From a virus (Duplodnaviria > Caudoviricetes): a stretch of 64,000 nucleotides of DNA. The DNA lies in IMG/VR virus record IMGVR_UViG_3300031853_000006, positions 52,897 to 116,896 of that record; one strand, 5' to 3'. The position numbers were made by a program, and so were the translations under genes. The notes beneath the pieces were generated by a model. The model did no database searches. It saw only the letters and a program-made list of their open reading frames with translations, and had not been told where the DNA came from. This document shows, in pieces, positions 15,533-27,976 of this stretch (the first letter of the stretch is position 1; every line of letters starts with the position of its first letter).

Positions 15533-17653
15533 ATGATGGAAACAATGGAAGAACTTGTAGAGCAACTTAATAAAGCGTCAGACGCGTATTATAACCTAGG
15601 TAGACCGATCATGACTGACTTCGAGTTTGACGAACTGATCAACAAACTTCTCTATTTAGAAGAAAAAGAAAAGAGAGTCCTGCCTAACAGCCCGACACAG
15701 ACAGTTGGTGCTCCAGTAGTAGATACTCTTGAAAAGTTTGAGCATCCTTATCCTGCACTCTCACTAGATAAAACAAAAGACAAAAAGTTAATCGAGCAGA
15801 AATTCAGAAACGGTTTAGGGGCGTCTGATCCGCCGGACAGCAGACTCGTTGTGATGTATAAAGAGGACGGAGCAACAATCCAGGCCTATTACAATAACGG
15901 AACACTTGATAAACTCGTCACTCGTGGAGATGGGCATATTGGAAGCGTCATAACGCACAACGCAAAGTGTATCAAAGGACTCCCAGTAAGAATAGCCTAC
16001 AGGGGTCACTTAGTAGTGCGAGGCGAAGCACTGATGTCTTACAAAGAGTTCGAGCGGATCAATGAAAAGCTTCCAGACGAGGAGAAGTATCGAAATCCGA
16101 GAAACCTTGCAGCGGCAACACTCACAATGCTCGACAGTAATGAAGCAGCCGAAAGGCAGTTAGTCCTGAAAGCATTCAACTTAGTCCACATCGATATGGA
16201 CGATGAGACTAATGCAAATGCATCGAAGGAAGCCATTGTTCTTCAGAATAGTTTCAACGAACGTCTGAACTATCTGAATGCACTCGGCTTCTCAACCGTT
16301 GATAGAGAACTGACACCCCTCAGCGGCCTGCCGGAAGTAATGGATAAGTTTAGCGATAATGTTAAAGTTTATCCATATCCGGTTGACGGATTAGTGATCG
16401 CAATGAATAGTTACTCAACAACAAAAGATCTTACGGGAACAGAACATCACCCTAATATACTGTCAGGATATGCTTTCAAGTGGGCAGATGAAGAAGTAGA
16501 AACAGTCTTAAGAGAAATCGAATGGTCGCCTTCTAGGACAGGTCTGTTGAATCCGGTGGCGATTTTCGATCCAGTTGAGATTGACGGAACTATCGTCCAA
16601 AGAGCATCGCTTCATAACTTTTCAATCATGCGGGAGATGAACATCATGGTAGGCGATCGTGTTAACGTCATAAAAAGCAACCAGATAATTCCACAGATCA
16701 CAAAGAACCTGGATAAGGGCAATCATCCTAACTTCTATGATTCATGGGATTGGATTGTGAGAGAACTTATCGGCAAATGTCCGACTTGTGGCTGCACTGC
16801 AACAATTCAGAGATCGCCGGAAGGCGTTGAAACAGTCTACTGCCCCAATCAGGATTGCCCGGAAAAACTTCTTGGCAAGTTTGAGCATTTCTGCTCAAGA
16901 GAGTGTATGAACATTGACGGAATGTCCTACGAAACAATCAAAAAGTTGTACGATAAGGGCTTCATAAAAGAGTATTCCGATTTCTTCAGGTTAGAGAATG
17001 AACCGGCAATATCATTACTTCCCGGTTTTGGCAAACAGAGTTGGAAGAAAATGTACCAAGCAGCTGAGAAAGCAAAAACAACTGACTTTGTTCGGTTCTT
17101 CACTGCTCTTGGTATTCCGGACATCGGAAAAGGTCAGTTGAAGATCTTGAAGAAACATATCAACGAGAATTACGAAAGCATTGCAAACCAAGTTGGAGTT
17201 GACCCTGAAGGTTATAACTTAGGTGTCTTGTTATCTGCGATGGGCAGGACTAACTACGCATTTGAGAAGATCGACGGCTTTGGATCAATTCTTGCCAATA
17301 ATCTCAGGACTTGGCTCCAGGAAAGATTTGACTTCGAGGGAACTTGGACACCCGAAATTAACGTCTACGGCTGCCTGACATTCACAGATAAGCCTGCAAC
17401 GGCTGCGAAAGACAGTGCAATTTCCGGTCAGTCCTTCTGCATAACAGGTAAACTAGTTTCCTATAAGAATCGACAAGCTCTCGTGGATGTAATTGAAGCG
17501 AACGGGGGCAAGTGGGTAGATAGTGTGTCAAGTAAGACTAACTACCTTATCAACAACGATACAGAAAGTAGTTCGGGAAAGAATAAAAAAGCAAAAGAGC
17601 TTAATATTCCTATAATAAGTGAAGAAGAATTCAATCAAATGATAGGAGGGTGA
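15533..17653 (+). CDS. ligA: NAD-dependent DNA ligase
   Basis: KEDG adenylation motif, TRGDG, RGE, NPRNLAA, DGLV, AFKW, SRTG, zinc finger, HhH, C-terminal BRCT. Confidence 0.95.
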   Translation: MMETMEELVEQLNKASDAYYNLGRPIMTDFEFDELINKLLYLEEKEKRVLPNSPTQTVGAPVVDTLEKFEHPYPALSLDKTKDKKLIEQKFRNGLGASDPPDSRLVVMYKEDGATIQAYYNNGTLDKLVTRGDGHIGSVITHNAKCIKGLPVRIAYRGHLVVRGEALMSYKEFERINEKLPDEEKYRNPRNLAAATLTMLDSNEAAERQLVLKAFNLVHIDMDDETNANASKEAIVLQNSFNERLNYLNALGFSTVDRELTPLSGLPEVMDKFSDNVKVYPYPVDGLVIAMNSYSTTKDLTGTEHHPNILSGYAFKWADEEVETVLREIEWSPSRTGLLNPVAIFDPVEIDGTIVQRASLHNFSIMREMNIMVGDRVNVIKSNQIIPQITKNLDKGNHPNFYDSWDWIVRELIGKCPTCGCTATIQRSPEGVETVYCPNQDCPEKLLGKFEHFCSRECMNIDGMSYETIKKLYDKGFIKEYSDFFRLENEPAISLLPGFGKQSWKKMYQAAEKAKTTDFVRFFTALGIPDIGKGQLKILKKHINENYESIANQVGVDPEGYNLGVLLSAMGRTNYAFEKIDGFGSILANNLRTWLQERFDFEGTWTPEINVYGCLTFTDKPATAAKDSAISGQSFCITGKLVSYKNRQALVDVIEANGGKWVDSVSSKTNYLINNDTESSSGKNKKAKELNIPIISEEEFNQMIGG

Positions 17654-23612: not shown

Positions 23613-24632
23613 TTACTCGACTTCATTGGTGTATTCGTATTCATCTAAATAATCCGTCGTGATATAATCATACCTCTTTTTCATCTCAATCACGTTGTCT
23701 CTTGAATTGACTTTCCGCAACCCCTCTTCCAATCTCCAATATACGTCATACATGCCCTCTTTCACAAGTTTCACAGACAGCGACTTAAGAAGTTCTGGAC
23801 TAGCTAATGACCTCGGGACTACACATTTGAAAGAATCAATTCCAATTGTATTCAAAGCCTCGCCCATCAACTTAGAATAATAATTTGGATTCATATAGTT
23901 GCCTCTCGTGCCGAAGTCCGCAAGATAAATAACACCTTGCTTCCGTTCAAACCGCAAAACTTGATATAATATCCCATCATCGACTAATCCAACAGAAGTA
24001 TGAATCTTCCCGAATTTAGGACAAACACGTTGCCCATATCGCTTCAAAAACTCAACACTCGCCCTTTCTTTCAATACGTAGACCTGCATGTGTTCTTCTT
24101 CAATTCTAAATAAAGGGCCATCTGGGTTCGGCAAAGTCTTGAGAGGGAATTCAGTCAGTATCGTCTGTGTGAACTTATCCTTAATTGTAGTTGATAAACT
24201 TTCAGATTTCTTGAGTTTCTTTATATTGTCTACTCCATACTTACGCTGTAAGGTTTCAACTCCTTTCCGATAGATTTCAGGAGATTGCATCGCGTAGTCA
24301 ACTCCGAATTTCTTTTGCATTGTCGCTTTTGCTTTCTCTCTTGCTTCTGGATTATTACCAGGGGCCTTCATTCCATATTTCTTCATACTAGTTTCCTGCG
24401 TACGCTTAACTCTGCAAGCATACGAACACGCAACCGGAGGCCGCTTCAAGTTATCATCATTAGTAACTAAGTATCTCTTACCACAAACAGGACAGTTCAT
24501 ATAGTGAGGTTCCTTACAGTATTTTTGAGAAGCTGTTTTAGGTATGAAAGGCTTTCCGCAGAATTCACAAATCTTCTCCTTTTTGAAATCATCTTCCATG
24601 TGGTCACACTTCCTTTCCGGTTTTAGAGCCAT
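23613..24632 (-). CDS. degenerate Hef-like protein (zinc ribbon and KYG repeats; nuclease motif missing)
   Basis: N-terminus matches the Hef-like paralogs; no D..E.NP/DP motif; C-terminus weakly similar. Confidence 0.65.
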   Translation of the reverse strand: MALKPERKCDHMEDDFKKEKICEFCGKPFIPKTASQKYCKEPHYMNCPVCGKRYLVTNDDNLKRPPVACSYACRVKRTQETSMKKYGMKAPGNNPEAREKAKATMQKKFGVDYAMQSPEIYRKGVETLQRKYGVDNIKKLKKSESLSTTIKDKFTQTILTEFPLKTLPNPDGPLFRIEEEHMQVYVLKERASVEFLKRYGQRVCPKFGKIHTSVGLVDDGILYQVLRFERKQGVIYLADFGTRGNYMNPNYYSKLMGEALNTIGIDSFKCVVPRSLASPELLKSLSVKLVKEGMYDVYWRLEEGLRKVNSRDNVIEMKKRYDYITTDYLDEYEYTNEVE

Positions 24633-24690: not shown

Positions 24691-24751
24691 TATGTAATCT
24701 TAAATATTTTCGTAACATCAACATAAATCAAACACCGAAAGGAGAAATCAT

Positions 24752-26126
24752 ATGTTTACACCTTTACACATGGGTGAGGGTGCCCCGCATATTCAGTGAT
24801 GAGTGTGTGCTACTCGGGTTAACTGCTTTGAATTCCTAAGAGCCTCAGTCGCTACAACGTAGATTGAAAAGTCAAGCGTGAATGCCGCGAAAGCAGAAAG
24901 AAGAATTGAGGATGGCCTAAGGTGAAACAAAAGCCTTGCAGAATTTAAGCATAGTTCTACAAGGTCCTAAGGGTCAATCAACAATGGATGTTTAGCAGCG
25001 AAAGTCCTAAGTTCGTATCACGAATAAGGAACACGTTCAACGATCAGCCCCTTGAGGGGGATGTAGAACCGCAAGCCAATGGCGGAAGAAAAATCCGAGC
25101 TCCTTAGGTATTAAGGATGACGAAATGATCTGAGCTTCACTGAAAGGTGAAGTTGCTCTAAGAGCAGAATACTTCTTGCGAAAGTATTTGAACAATTAAC
25201 AAAGTGTACCAATCATATGCTCGGCGTGGATTAACATACCGGTCCCTTCACATAGTAATATGTGTCGACTAACTACATAGAATTGCTGGAACAACCGTAA
25301 AGCCTACTCAGCCACAACGCAGAGATGAAATATGCTCAGACGTGATGGCGGCGAAAGCAGAAAAAATCGAGTAGGATAGGCCAAGGTGAAATACAAGCCA
25401 GAAAAAGTAATCCTGGTCCTAAAGTCCATCTAACAATCGGAAATCAGCAGCCAAGCTCCGAACAGGAGAAGGTTCAACGAGTAAGCAGCCTCGAAATCGC
25501 GAGGACAGTAATGTAGGTCCTAAGCCTCCGGCAGGACATTATGTACTCTGGTCTATCAAGAAATTGATAGCGGCTCTTGAAAAGGGCGGTGGGAACCTTG
25601 CGAAGTCCCATGAACAATAACGGCATATGTACCTTTAACAACTAACAACTTTGAGATCCGTATCTACGGACTTGACGGAGGCGCTCCAACAGAAAACGCA
25701 GACCTCTTAACACTCTCTACATCAGAAATCGGAGAGATTCAGGAGGAACAAGACGTAATCACCGTACACTACGGAAACGGCATTGTTAAGTTCCCGAGCA
25801 AAGTAACATTTGCAGATGTTGACTGGACACTTAACTGCTATTGCGAGCCGAATGTGCTCGGAGCTCTGAGAGATTGGAGAAAGCAGGTGTATGATCCTGA
25901 TACGGAACGTATGGGATTGCCTACATCGTACATGCGTACTGTATACTTCATCCGTTATGATGCTTCTGGCCGTCAGGCAAGGGACATCATCAAGTGCCCG
26001 GGTACCTGGATCAGGGGATTAAAGAACGGAAACATGAACCAGGAAGGTGGCTCGATTGTTCAGGCCTCCGTAACGCTGGTCATCTCAAAAGCAACTTACA
26101 TGACAGGATCACAGATTCCGTCATAA
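24752..26126 (+). CDS. tail tube protein (T4 gp19-like), spliced from 3 exons: 24752-24775, about 25208-25231, 25623-26126
   Basis: AAAGGAG RBS and ATG 24752; joined frame MFTPLHMG-TNHMLGVD-AYVPLTTNNFEIRI...ITVHYGNGIVKFPSKVTFADVDWTL...W..QVYDP.T, about 183 aa; tube-like motifs. Confidence 0.8.
24776..25206 (+). mobile_element. group I intron 1 (IA-like, no internal ORF)
   Basis: P1 GGGU/GCCC; P3 CTCGGGTT(24813)/AATCCGAG(25092); P AACTGCTTTGAA; Q TTTAGCAGCG; R GTTCAACGATCA; P7 GATCA/TGATC; GNRA-capped P2 and P9; 3' end uncertain (25204-25207). Confidence 0.9.
25232..25622 (+). mobile_element. group I intron 2 (IA-like, no internal ORF)
   Basis: P1 GGAU/GUCC with U.G; P AATTGCTGGAA(25281); Q AATCAGCAGCC(25442); R GTTCAACGAGTA(25472); P7 GAGTA/TACTC; P3 CTACAT/ATGTAG; terminal G 25622 restores the frame. 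Confidence 0.9.
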
Positions 26127-26182: not shown

Positions 26183-27844
26183 TTATCTTTTCCATTCAAA
26201 AACCATCTGGCCGCAGTCATAAACGGATCGCCAACCGGATCTAATCATCAGTGCTTCATTAGAAGTACCTTTTCCGTAGTTTGTATGAAAAAGTTGATCA
26301 AAACCTCGTTGACGCAATAAATTATCAGTTACGTATTCAACACCTCTTGACCAGACCTTTGCGGGACTTGATGTATGATGTAAGGACATACCAATCTTTT
26401 CATATACTTCTCCATTGAATTTTGCTCTATCGCAATAACTGATGATAGATTCAGGATTTACTTCTTTCAAGAACTTTTGGAACATTTTAGAAGCTCCCCC
26501 TACGACTTGATGCTTAGAGTCTGTACACAGTCGTAAAAGTTCCCATTCATAATTTTTATTATATCGAGGTTTGCCAAAAGTCATTACGCTCAGTAACTCA
26601 CCTTGATAGAATAGTGCGTAGGCGTACTTAGCACCTCTCGCATCTCCTTGAATATGGTTACGTTGAATGAATTCAGTAACATCTTTAGGATCCACAGATT
26701 TAACTTCACATCTCCTAGCATATATTTTTTCTTTTGGCAACACTAAGTTAAGAACTTTTTCTCTTTCATCCCAATCAAATACATGAATACATCTATAGCC
26801 ATTGTCCTGTGCTAACCTTGATCTCTCAATGTGATACCTAGGATCTTTTCCTACAGACTCCCAGTGGTTAGGCAGGTCTGAATGAGTATAGGACGGATCA
26901 ATCTCAACTACTATATTAGTTCCAAGCACTCGCATATCAAACCATTTACCATCAATATATTCTTCTTCCTTCACTTTAACTCCATTACTTTCCAAGAATT
27001 CCATGAATTCTTGATTGACCTTTGATGACCTACCTGTTCTGTTTTCTAGCATAGCTTGTCGTGCCTTTTCTTGACTTTCAGGAAGTTGCAAAGTGCATTT
27101 TACTCCATATCTTTCTTCGCAAGTCTGCATTGCTTTCTCTCGTGATTCGGGTATCATTCCAGAATAAGGGACGCCATGGTTAGCCATAAGTGTTTCCATC
27201 ATAGCAATCTGAACGATTTCGCTCTGTGCCGGATAATTCGTTCCATATTTTTCACGACACGTATCAATGTGCTTTTGTCGTACTTCTTTGCTCTTTTGTA
27301 CTTCACTCATCTTCTTGCGTAGTTCAGGAGATTCATCCGGATTAGTAACTCCGTACCGTTCCATCATAGTTGCTTCTATTTTCTGCCGGAGCACTGGAGA
27401 AGCAGTACCGATACCTCCGTACTTGGATTCTAGAGTTGCTCTTGCCTTCTTATTGGTCTCAGGAATCTTGGCCTTGATCTTCTCAACAGCCTTGTCGTGA
27501 AACTCCTTGACTTGACTCGGATTGCGTACTCCGTATTTCGCTTCTAATGTATCCTGTGCTTTCTGTATTTTTAATTTAGATTCGCACTCTTTGGAACATG
27601 TGTAACGGACAGCACCGTATTTCTCACTCGGCACTTTCATAGCTATGGGTCTTCCGCAGACTAAGCAATCCAGATAATGAGTGCGTTTGCAATAGCGCTG
27701 TCTGCTCCCGTTACGTCCTTCTCCTACAAACAACTTCTTACAAAGCGGACACTCTTTGACTTTCGGAGTATCTTTAGTAACTCCAGAATAGTTATAATCA
27801 TCAGCAGAATATACTTTTTGCATAATTTCTTCGTGAGATAGCAT
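26183..27844 (-). CDS. Hef-like free-standing homing endonuclease
   Basis: Zinc ribbon, KYG repeats, 'FDMRV...VVEIDPSYTHS..YH', 'IYARRC..NHIQG..VVGGASK'; start probably ATG 27844 after AAAGGA and the ATCGTTA motif. Confidence 0.75.
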   Translation of the reverse strand: MLSHEEIMQKVYSADDYNYSGVTKDTPKVKECPLCKKLFVGEGRNGSRQRYCKRTHYLDCLVCGRPIAMKVPSEKYGAVRYTCSKECESKLKIQKAQDTLEAKYGVRNPSQVKEFHDKAVEKIKAKIPETNKKARATLESKYGGIGTASPVLRQKIEATMMERYGVTNPDESPELRKKMSEVQKSKEVRQKHIDTCREKYGTNYPAQSEIVQIAMMETLMANHGVPYSGMIPESREKAMQTCEERYGVKCTLQLPESQEKARQAMLENRTGRSSKVNQEFMEFLESNGVKVKEEEYIDGKWFDMRVLGTNIVVEIDPSYTHSDLPNHWESVGKDPRYHIERSRLAQDNGYRCIHVFDWDEREKVLNLVLPKEKIYARRCEVKSVDPKDVTEFIQRNHIQGDARGAKYAYALFYQGELLSVMTFGKPRYNKNYEWELLRLCTDSKHQVVGGASKMFQKFLKEVNPESIISYCDRAKFNGEVYEKIGMSLHHTSSPAKVWSRGVEYVTDNLLRQRGFDQLFHTNYGKGTSNEALMIRSGWRSVYDCGQMVFEWKR

Positions 27845-27976
27845 GCTTTGCACCAATCCTTTCTGATAATTATATAACGATTTTAGTATGGTTGACCTAA
27901 TTACGCGGTACACCTTACATCTATACGAACCTTCAATAAGTATACAAAATACCTAACTAAAGGAGGATCAGTACGC

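Follow-up and report, generated by a model that had tools for sequence, protein, structure and literature searches.

Introduction

Group I introns of the IA type are common in phages of Firmicutes. The tail tube gene orf142 of Staphylococcus phage Twort contains three self-splicing group I introns (Landthaler and Shub, 1999, as summarised in PMC11878797 and PMC10136302), and two similar IA2 introns of this gene lie around a skippable exon of 23 nt (PMC10136302; PMC11878797). On the Twort genome (NC_007021) Rfam places the introns at 16606-16892, 16973-17197 and 17248-17506, immediately downstream of the sheath gene, and the exon of 23 nt can be read there. Bastillevirinae and other phages of the Herelleviridae also carry introns of the IA type, often several per gene, with weak Rfam scores for the phage variants (PMC11878797). 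For Coxiella, the title of a 2007 study, as listed in PMC11270868, reports an intron end other than G in an rRNA gene, and an exon of 34 nt is mentioned in PMC10136302.

Here we analysed a window of 64,000 nt (the whole stretch of DNA under study) in an IMG/VR virus record of 116.9 kb from the bovine gut, a metagenomic fragment of an uncultured phage that is ~78% complete. We assign a probability of roughly 0.87 to the reading that the window holds a tail tube gene with two small, ORF-less IA-type group I introns in its first 16 codons, and that these are spliced to give a 183-aa protein.

A tail tube gene with several introns and a micro-exon is already known from Twort, and the window presents a gene of the same kind, a different tube gene that is interrupted at its opposite end. 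Both are contractile-tail tube genes with several compact, ORF-less group I introns in tandem and a micro-exon (23 nt in Twort, 24 nt in the window), a UGAACA motif is common to the 3′ tails of the introns, and 29 nt of window intron 2 (P1/P2) are 93% identical to Twort intron 1. The Twort introns, however, cluster near the 3′ end of the gene whereas those of the window fall inside the opening 16 codons, introns 2 and 3 of Twort are near-duplicates, unlike the two introns of the window, and the two tube proteins are not detectably similar by sequence (tblastn, no Staphylococcus match). The Twort junctions as read are canonical whereas that of window intron 1 is not, and splicing and exon skipping were shown experimentally in Twort whereas splicing in the window is predicted from sequence. 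Two features set it somewhat apart, an off-by-one junction across a whole intron family, and an intron hot spot with apparent retargeting.

As far as the sources named above describe it, the Coxiella case resembles the window in having two group I introns around a very short exon, one of them off the terminal-G rule; its host gene encodes rRNA whereas that of the window is a phage protein gene. In Raghavan's 2007 Coxiella intron study the odd terminal base is said to be an A. The Herelleviridae introns lie in genes for DNA polymerase, terminase, ribonucleotide reductase and thymidylate synthase and mostly have an internal endonuclease gene, whereas the window introns are ORF-less and interrupt a tube gene. 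Collaborative homing between an ORF-less intron in cyanophage psbA and the free-standing F-CphI was reportedly described by Zeng, Bonocora and Shub in 2009, and the window shares with that system the combination of ORF-less introns in a conserved gene and adjoining free-standing genes of homing-endonuclease type.

Structure of the interrupted gene

A ribosome-binding site read from the sequence (AAAGGAG; 24738-24744, + strand) lies 7 nt upstream of an ATG at 24752, and sites of the GGAG type are likewise found upstream of exon 1 in related loci. The frame of this ATG encodes MFTPLHMG and seven more codons and is then closed (15 codons in total). Exon 1 (24752-24775, + strand; 8 codons) translates to MFTPLHMG, the same eight residues with which the uninterrupted homologs P0005 and P0131 begin; a 5′ cut after the wobble U would end exon 1 at 24775, and a cut one base upstream would end it at 24774. 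Intron 1 (24776-25207, + strand) is an ORF-less group I intron of 432 nt and of an IA-like subgroup with borders set by protein homology, and in an alternative register it spans 24775-25206 with G25206 as its terminal G. The 24-nt micro-exon (25208-25231, + strand; TNHMLGVD) is defined by translation and by contiguity in homologs, since in P0002 and P0131 it adjoins both flanking exons, and P0125 has it joined to exon 3. Intron 2 (25232-25622, + strand), an ORF-less group I intron of 391 nt, has canonical ends, with U25231 before it and a terminal G25622.

Exon 3 (25623-26126, + strand; 167 codons and TAA) encodes the body of the tail tube protein. Its frame is open from 25614 to 26126, about 870 nt downstream of the start, and has no ATG, GTG or TTG before a GTG at 25854, which lies some 80 residues inside the part with homology to tube proteins; homologs of exon 3 have about 20 extra N-terminal residues. 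Joining 24752-24775, 25208-25231 and 25623-26126 gives a protein of 183 aa (8+8+167) with the predicted N-terminal peptide MFTPLHMGTNHM, and the predicted mRNA junctions read ...CACAUGGGUACCAAU... and ...GUGGAUGCAUAUGUA... No ORF of at least 60 aa was found inside intron 1 or intron 2, and a promoter and terminator scan of the + strand around the tube gene returned nothing convincing. The first-pass annotation had described a ribosome-binding site and ATG that otherwise lead nowhere, two ORF-less introns, a micro-exon of about 24 nt and a rebuilt tube-like protein of about 183 aa; its coordinates were right, and these features were all recovered here.

Identity of the protein and its gene neighbourhood

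Exon 3 matched positions 25-180 of the 214-position profile PHROG 4542 'tail tube protein' (E = 7e-12), and tblastn linked it to annotated tube genes that sit after sheath genes in Bacillus phages SP-15 and HSE3 and in Listeria phage LIS04. Pfam gave no match to exon 3 or P0131, PF06841 (T4 gp19-type tail tube) included; homologs from SP-15 and HSE3 passed PF06841 with 34.6 and 35.7 bits against a cut-off of 28.2. An AlphaFold model of P0131, made with 33 close homologs as input and weak at a pLDDT of 57, served the fold search alone. With this weak model Foldseek placed at the top the tube of Klebsiella phage KP1 (E = 2e-6), the tubes of the anti-feeding prophage (AFP) and Photorhabdus PVC and T4 gp19 (5iv5/5w5f), and Hcp structures were matched too. 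A profile search against PDB sequences reached a tail tube protein at no better than E = 0.09. The gene thus encodes a contractile-tail tube protein with the T4 gp19/Hcp fold, its start split from its body, and it is the only tube homolog in the whole record.

A match to the sheath family PF04984 was absent from the whole record (~78% complete), and no sheath gene lies beside the tube gene. Neighbours of the tube gene between 12000 and 31000 of the window include genes for a NAD-dependent DNA ligase, a Holliday junction resolvase, a 678-aa acidic protein and a papain-like peptidase. Two free-standing genes resembling homing endonucleases flank the tube gene. The upstream one (23613-24632, - strand; 339 aa) is divergent and matches PHROG 3339 'homing endonuclease' (E = 7e-10) and Pfam DUF7487; the downstream one (26183-27913, - strand; 576 aa) is convergent and matches PHROG 3339 (E = 6e-82), PHROG 559 (E = 4e-53) and DUF7487. 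In many related loci, whether these have introns or not, relatives of both adjoin the tube gene.

Group I folds of both introns

The group I core elements that the first-pass annotation had noted twice were examined with group I models, as it had suggested. The Rfam default scan of the window with the group I intron model RF00028 (gathering score 50 bits) gave no match, and E-value mode on 1.2 kb gave two matches over model positions 1-253, at 24766-25152 (intron 1; 37.3 bits, E = 1.2e-7) and at 25222-25570 (intron 2; 23.5 bits, E = 0.0017). Both lie under the gathering threshold, and independent support was therefore sought in relatives.

The helices assigned to intron 1 are P1 (24772-75/24782-85), P2 (24786-95/24800-09), P3 (24813-18/25094-99), P4 (24823-27/24994-98), P7 (25042-46/25126-30), P7.1 (25048-51/25057-60), P7.2 (25069-72/25082-85), P8 (25101-06/25112-17), P9 (25135-41/25146-52), and P9.1 and P9.2 up to 25187. 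When this assignment was laid on an alignment of 12 distinct introns from the same insertion site (site A), 89.6% of cells were paired, against 35-41% with the 3′ partners slid by 1-3 columns. Both sides had changed in 50 of the 79 pairs, and the observed values were reached by none of 500 shuffles. Double changes were found in P2, P3, P7, P7.1, P7.2 and P9, with variants such as CUCGG/CCGAG, CCAGG/CCUGG and CCUUC/GAAGG in P3 and GAUCA/UGAUC, GACUA/UAGUC and GAUUA/UAAUC in P7. The P7.1 and P7.2 hairpins, which lie between P7 and P3′, were 100% paired in the 12 sequences, with double changes, and intron 1 was placed in subgroup IA because of these two hairpins. Intron 2 has a single hairpin of this kind.

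For intron 2, helices P1 to P9 all form in its own sequence: P1 (25228-31/25242-45), P2 (25249-54/25259-64), P3 (25273-78/25511-16), P4 (25284-88/25445-49), P5 (25295-97/25438-40), P6 and P6a (25450-73), P7 (25479-83/25544-48), P7.1 (25489-93/25500-04), P8 (25518-21/25533-36) and P9 (25553-59/25564-70). In a set of 11 sequences (the window and 10 relatives, several of which score above the Rfam cut-off), 77.8% of cells were paired compared to 34-43% in the slid versions, with both sides changed in 30 of 55 pairs. Pairing reached 97-100% in P2, P4, P5, P6, P6a and P7, with double changes; P3, P8 and P9 are poorly aligned between the more distant introns.

P7 reads GAUCA/UGAUC in intron 1 and GAGUA/UACUC in intron 2, compared to the consensus GACUA/UAGUC, and these are double substitutions that keep the G-C. 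The guanosine-binding G-C, counted as the first P7 pair, is invariant in the intron 1 family (12/12) and in the intron 2 set (11/11). The two introns are not close paralogs, and their common stretch, 61 nt with 77% identity, belongs to the large insertion at P5. On the strength of this covariation both elements are classed as group I introns with a predicted conserved core, P3-P9, including the P3/P7 pseudoknot, as the two sets of core elements noted earlier had indicated.

Intron-less alleles and intron sites in related loci

The exon 3 protein has 737 database relatives, with the full-length start MFxPLxMGTNHMLGxDxYVPLTTNNFEIRIY. P0131 (183 aa, ~90% identical, uninterrupted) starts MFTPLHMGTNHMLGVDAYVPLTTNNF, which corresponds to exon 1, 25208-25231 and exon 3, and its first 32 residues equal those of the predicted spliced product. 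P0002 and P0125 are both identical to exon 3 over the shared length; P0002 reads MG-TNHMLGVD-AYVPL unbroken, and P0125 reads MLGVD-AYVPL unbroken and is an allele without intron 2 in which intron 1 is probably still present. These are natural empty alleles, and they therefore fix the exon borders and mark the introns as polymorphic among near-identical phages. The database calls P0002, P0006, P0037, P0086 and P0111 start at Met7 (MGTNHM...) rather than at MFxPLxMG.

We fetched 47 viral and 80 metagenome loci, which gave 86 distinct loci with a judgeable 5′ end. An uninterrupted gene with the full MFxPLxMGTNHMLGxDxYVPL N-terminus was found in 58 of these, and the remaining 28 are interrupted within the first ~30 codons. 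The first-pass annotation had named a start of homologous tube proteins within exon 3 as evidence against its reading; the homologs do not start there, and the comparison with intron-less homologs that it proposed gave N-termini equal to the predicted product.

Of the sites used, five or more hold group I introns and one holds a group II intron. The insertion sites include site A (G|T; 12 loci, plus L052 and intron 1 of the window), site B (N|H), site C (M|L), N|Y (L036), L|T, N|N-F (second intron of L052) and FEIR|I (L043), and the site of window intron 2, D|A, was used in no other locus examined. RF00028 scored above its cut-off in the two-intron loci L131 (94 and 74 bits), L043 (91 and 72 bits) and L015 (63 and 59 bits) as well as in L118 (69 bits) and L072 (62 bits), the related introns in this stretch of the tube gene ranging from 58 to 94 bits. 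Double introns are common in the 5′ stretch of the tube gene within this phage clade, and Twort orf142 is itself a tail tube gene with three group I introns, so that the rarity in late genes put forward in the first-pass annotation was overstated.

In L048 (2380-3015), an ORF-less group II intron of ~630 nt that starts with GUGCG is inserted at ...VP|L..., and it scores above the cut-off with both RF02004 (63 bits) and RF00029 (57.5 bits). L044, L106, L117 and L125 probably have an ORF-less group II intron of the same class.

The core of intron 2 (P4′-P6-P7, 25442-25480) was matched by very many bovine gut contigs, with a summed depth of up to ~5,500 in one run; the core is widespread in bovine gut runs. 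In the contigs of four runs (two DNA-like, two labelled metatranscriptomic but probably DNA), neither intron was skipped at the predicted borders; the joints found there come from related phages, e.g., an intron-1-like contig running into exon 3 with 149 other letters between.

Megablast against phages gave one match of 55 nt alone. Introns 1 and 2 have 70-78% DNA identity to unannotated stretches in Clostridium, Enterococcus, Staphylococcus, Lactococcus and Enterocloster phages, and three such places that we inspected are intron or IStron sites. In Enterococcus phage ECP3 (L135; 77606-77834) an intron-1-like stretch follows a truncated 'virion structural protein' (a tube gene fragment) beside the sheath gene and precedes an 'intron encoded nuclease', and the tube gene of this phage seems to have a related intron as well. 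In Clostridium phage c-st (L134; 128257-128554) IS605-type transposase genes come directly after an intron-1-like stretch, an arrangement typical of an IStron (a group I intron fused to an insertion sequence). The third place lies within the portal gene of Staphylococcus phage Romulus (L136; 9365-9477), where an intron-1-like stretch is followed by an IS605-type transposase gene.

Splice junctions and alternative readings

In group I introns the 5′ exon ends in a U, which forms a U.G wobble with the guide, and the last base of the intron is a G. The intron 2 junction is canonical, with a 5′ exon ending in ...GUGGAU (U25231), GGAU pairing with GUCC (25242-45), an intron end of ...AACG (G25622) and a join GAU|GCA that gives D-A as in the homologs. 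For intron 1 the homologs demand ...AUG GGN ACC..., the 5′ side being ...AUGGGU|GAGGGU-GCCCC... and the 3′ side ...ACAAAGUGU|ACC. The conserved G is 25206, and U25207 is the final base ahead of the homology-defined exon. With U24775 before the cut and G25206 as the terminal G, the mRNA gains one base and the frame is broken. The wobble U24775.G24782 is present in 12 of 12 family members, and a cut after U24775 clashes with the terminal G and the frame. All 12 also have GGGU at the 5′ side, the guide (G/U)U-GCCC, and a conserved G and one pyrimidine (10 U, 2 C) before ACN. In P10 the partner of the A of ACN is the U immediately 5′ to the guide G (U-A in 12/12), the G-C pair is found in 10/12, and further pairs covary, e.g., ACAAAU with GUUUGU in L041.

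We consider the chances about even that introns of this family have their 5′ cut one base ahead of the conserved U.G wobble, which would leave a G (G-C pair) at the exon end and a canonical terminal G. This cut after GGG is the only register that joins an in-frame product with a terminal G. In this register P1 and P10 form one unbroken helix (GGG|YAC on GUGCCC), the wobble U is the first intron base and the variable pyrimidine takes the third position of the Gly codon. One other reading keeps the frame, in which intron 1 is cut after the U as usual and ends in G+Y; a non-G end has one precedent by title in Coxiella (cited in PMC11270868), but a pyrimidine in the guanosine site is chemically hard to accept. 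In a large IStron mutant library the alternative 3′ sites all end in G (PMC13521648), and the tail of Twort intron 1, ...UUGAACAUAAUG|, aligns with the tails of the intron 1 family, and the cut after GGG is preferred to the G+Y end because of both.

An alternative P1 for intron 1 (ACACAU/GUGUGU) was rejected, as every family member forms its covarying P2 hairpin from this stretch, and frameshifting or the use of other frames to absorb the extra base had no supporting signal. Two introns at site B, L015:2098-2576 (...AUGA|CAU) and L131:158-480 (...AAGA|CAC), have G+A before CAY and are off by one like intron 1. These are two of four introns at this site; the relatives in L006 and L060 end in GG, for which a canonical reading is possible. 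The remaining introns of the tube gene that were read are canonical.

Three further readings of the locus were weighed against in-frame splicing to the 183-aa protein. Intron 1 could be cut fully canonically at U24775 and G25204, the only choice in the window that obeys both rules and keeps the frame, leaving UGU in the mRNA and yielding 184 aa with an extra Cys (MFTPLHMG-C-TNHM...). We regard this as improbable, as no homolog has that residue, not even P0002 with its 100% identity elsewhere, an in-frame G is missing at that place from the 11 further introns of the family, G+Y stands directly before ACN in all of them, and P10, with the pairing counts given above, sets the A of ACC beside the guide G. 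Still less probable is that exon 1 is not joined in frame, canonical cuts leaving the extra base, and that translation of the tube protein begins at the Met inside the micro-exon (MLGVD...), the start that gene callers assign to such alleles. Many database calls do start at MLGVD, and canonical cuts break the exon 1 frame in 12/12 family members, but no ribosome-binding site precedes the micro-exon ATG, whereas exon 1 has a strong one. Across the family the P1 pairing GGGU/GCCC and a covarying P10 are kept along with it, an arrangement that is sensible only with productive joining, and the MFxPLxMGTN N-terminus is conserved in the 58 uninterrupted loci.

That one or both elements are decayed relics in a gene that is dead in this genome is the reading to which we give the least credence. 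The low Rfam scores and the origin of the assembly as a metagenomic fragment would fit such decay, yet the core helices are all intact and their changes are compensatory rather than disruptive, the exons are undamaged and show 100% identity to intron-less alleles, and the record has no second tube homolog.

Proposed intron mobility and retargeting

In the explanation that we propose, the pre-mRNA would carry its translation start signals at 24738-24754, and each ribozyme would fold, cut its own 5′ splice site using guanosine and join the exons, the product being MFTPLHMG, TNHMLGVD and exon 3 (183 aa). Both splicing events would be needed, and otherwise no tube protein would be made. Self-splicing of introns 1 and 2, the exact 5′ cut of intron 1 and homing by the neighbouring nucleases are inferred; the sequences themselves show the gene anatomy, the covarying group I folds, the agreement of the predicted product with intron-less homologs and the presence/absence polymorphism of the introns.

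In this explanation the introns are mobile or recently so; near-identical alleles lack one or both of them and relatives have introns at neighbouring sites. The closest interrupted relative, L052 (90% protein identity), has a site-A intron and a second intron (L052:591-1029) with 83% identity to window intron 2 across 272 nt, at a site 30 nt further downstream (N|N-F). The guide in this second intron is GUUC and matches the exon end GAAU, and that of window intron 2 is GUCC and matches GGAU. The second intron of L043 (L043:2716-2990) has the same GGAU/GUCC pairing as window intron 2 at a third site, FEIR|I. It looks like one intron lineage has been retargeted within the tube gene.

The flanking free-standing genes of homing-endonuclease type would be the likely mobilisers. 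As a conjecture, these nucleases may target the tube gene itself, with the introns possibly riding along. Unlike the situation described for psbA and F-CphI, the nuclease genes here also flank intron-less alleles, and collaborative homing is therefore only a possibility.

Implications

Exon skipping, if it occurs, would remove exactly eight codons in frame if intron 1 is cut after U24775, and would break the frame if it is cut after G24774. If the cut does fall after the G, nature would provide in the intron 1 family an exception to a textbook rule of ribozyme site choice. The clade as a whole is a natural series for intron movement and retargeting, with 30 codons that include several group I sites, a group II intron, empty alleles and a retuned guide. 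An essential, abundant virion protein is missed here by ordinary gene callers, which give truncated forms starting MLGVD... or MG..., or nothing, and the tail modules of gut phages are therefore under-annotated.
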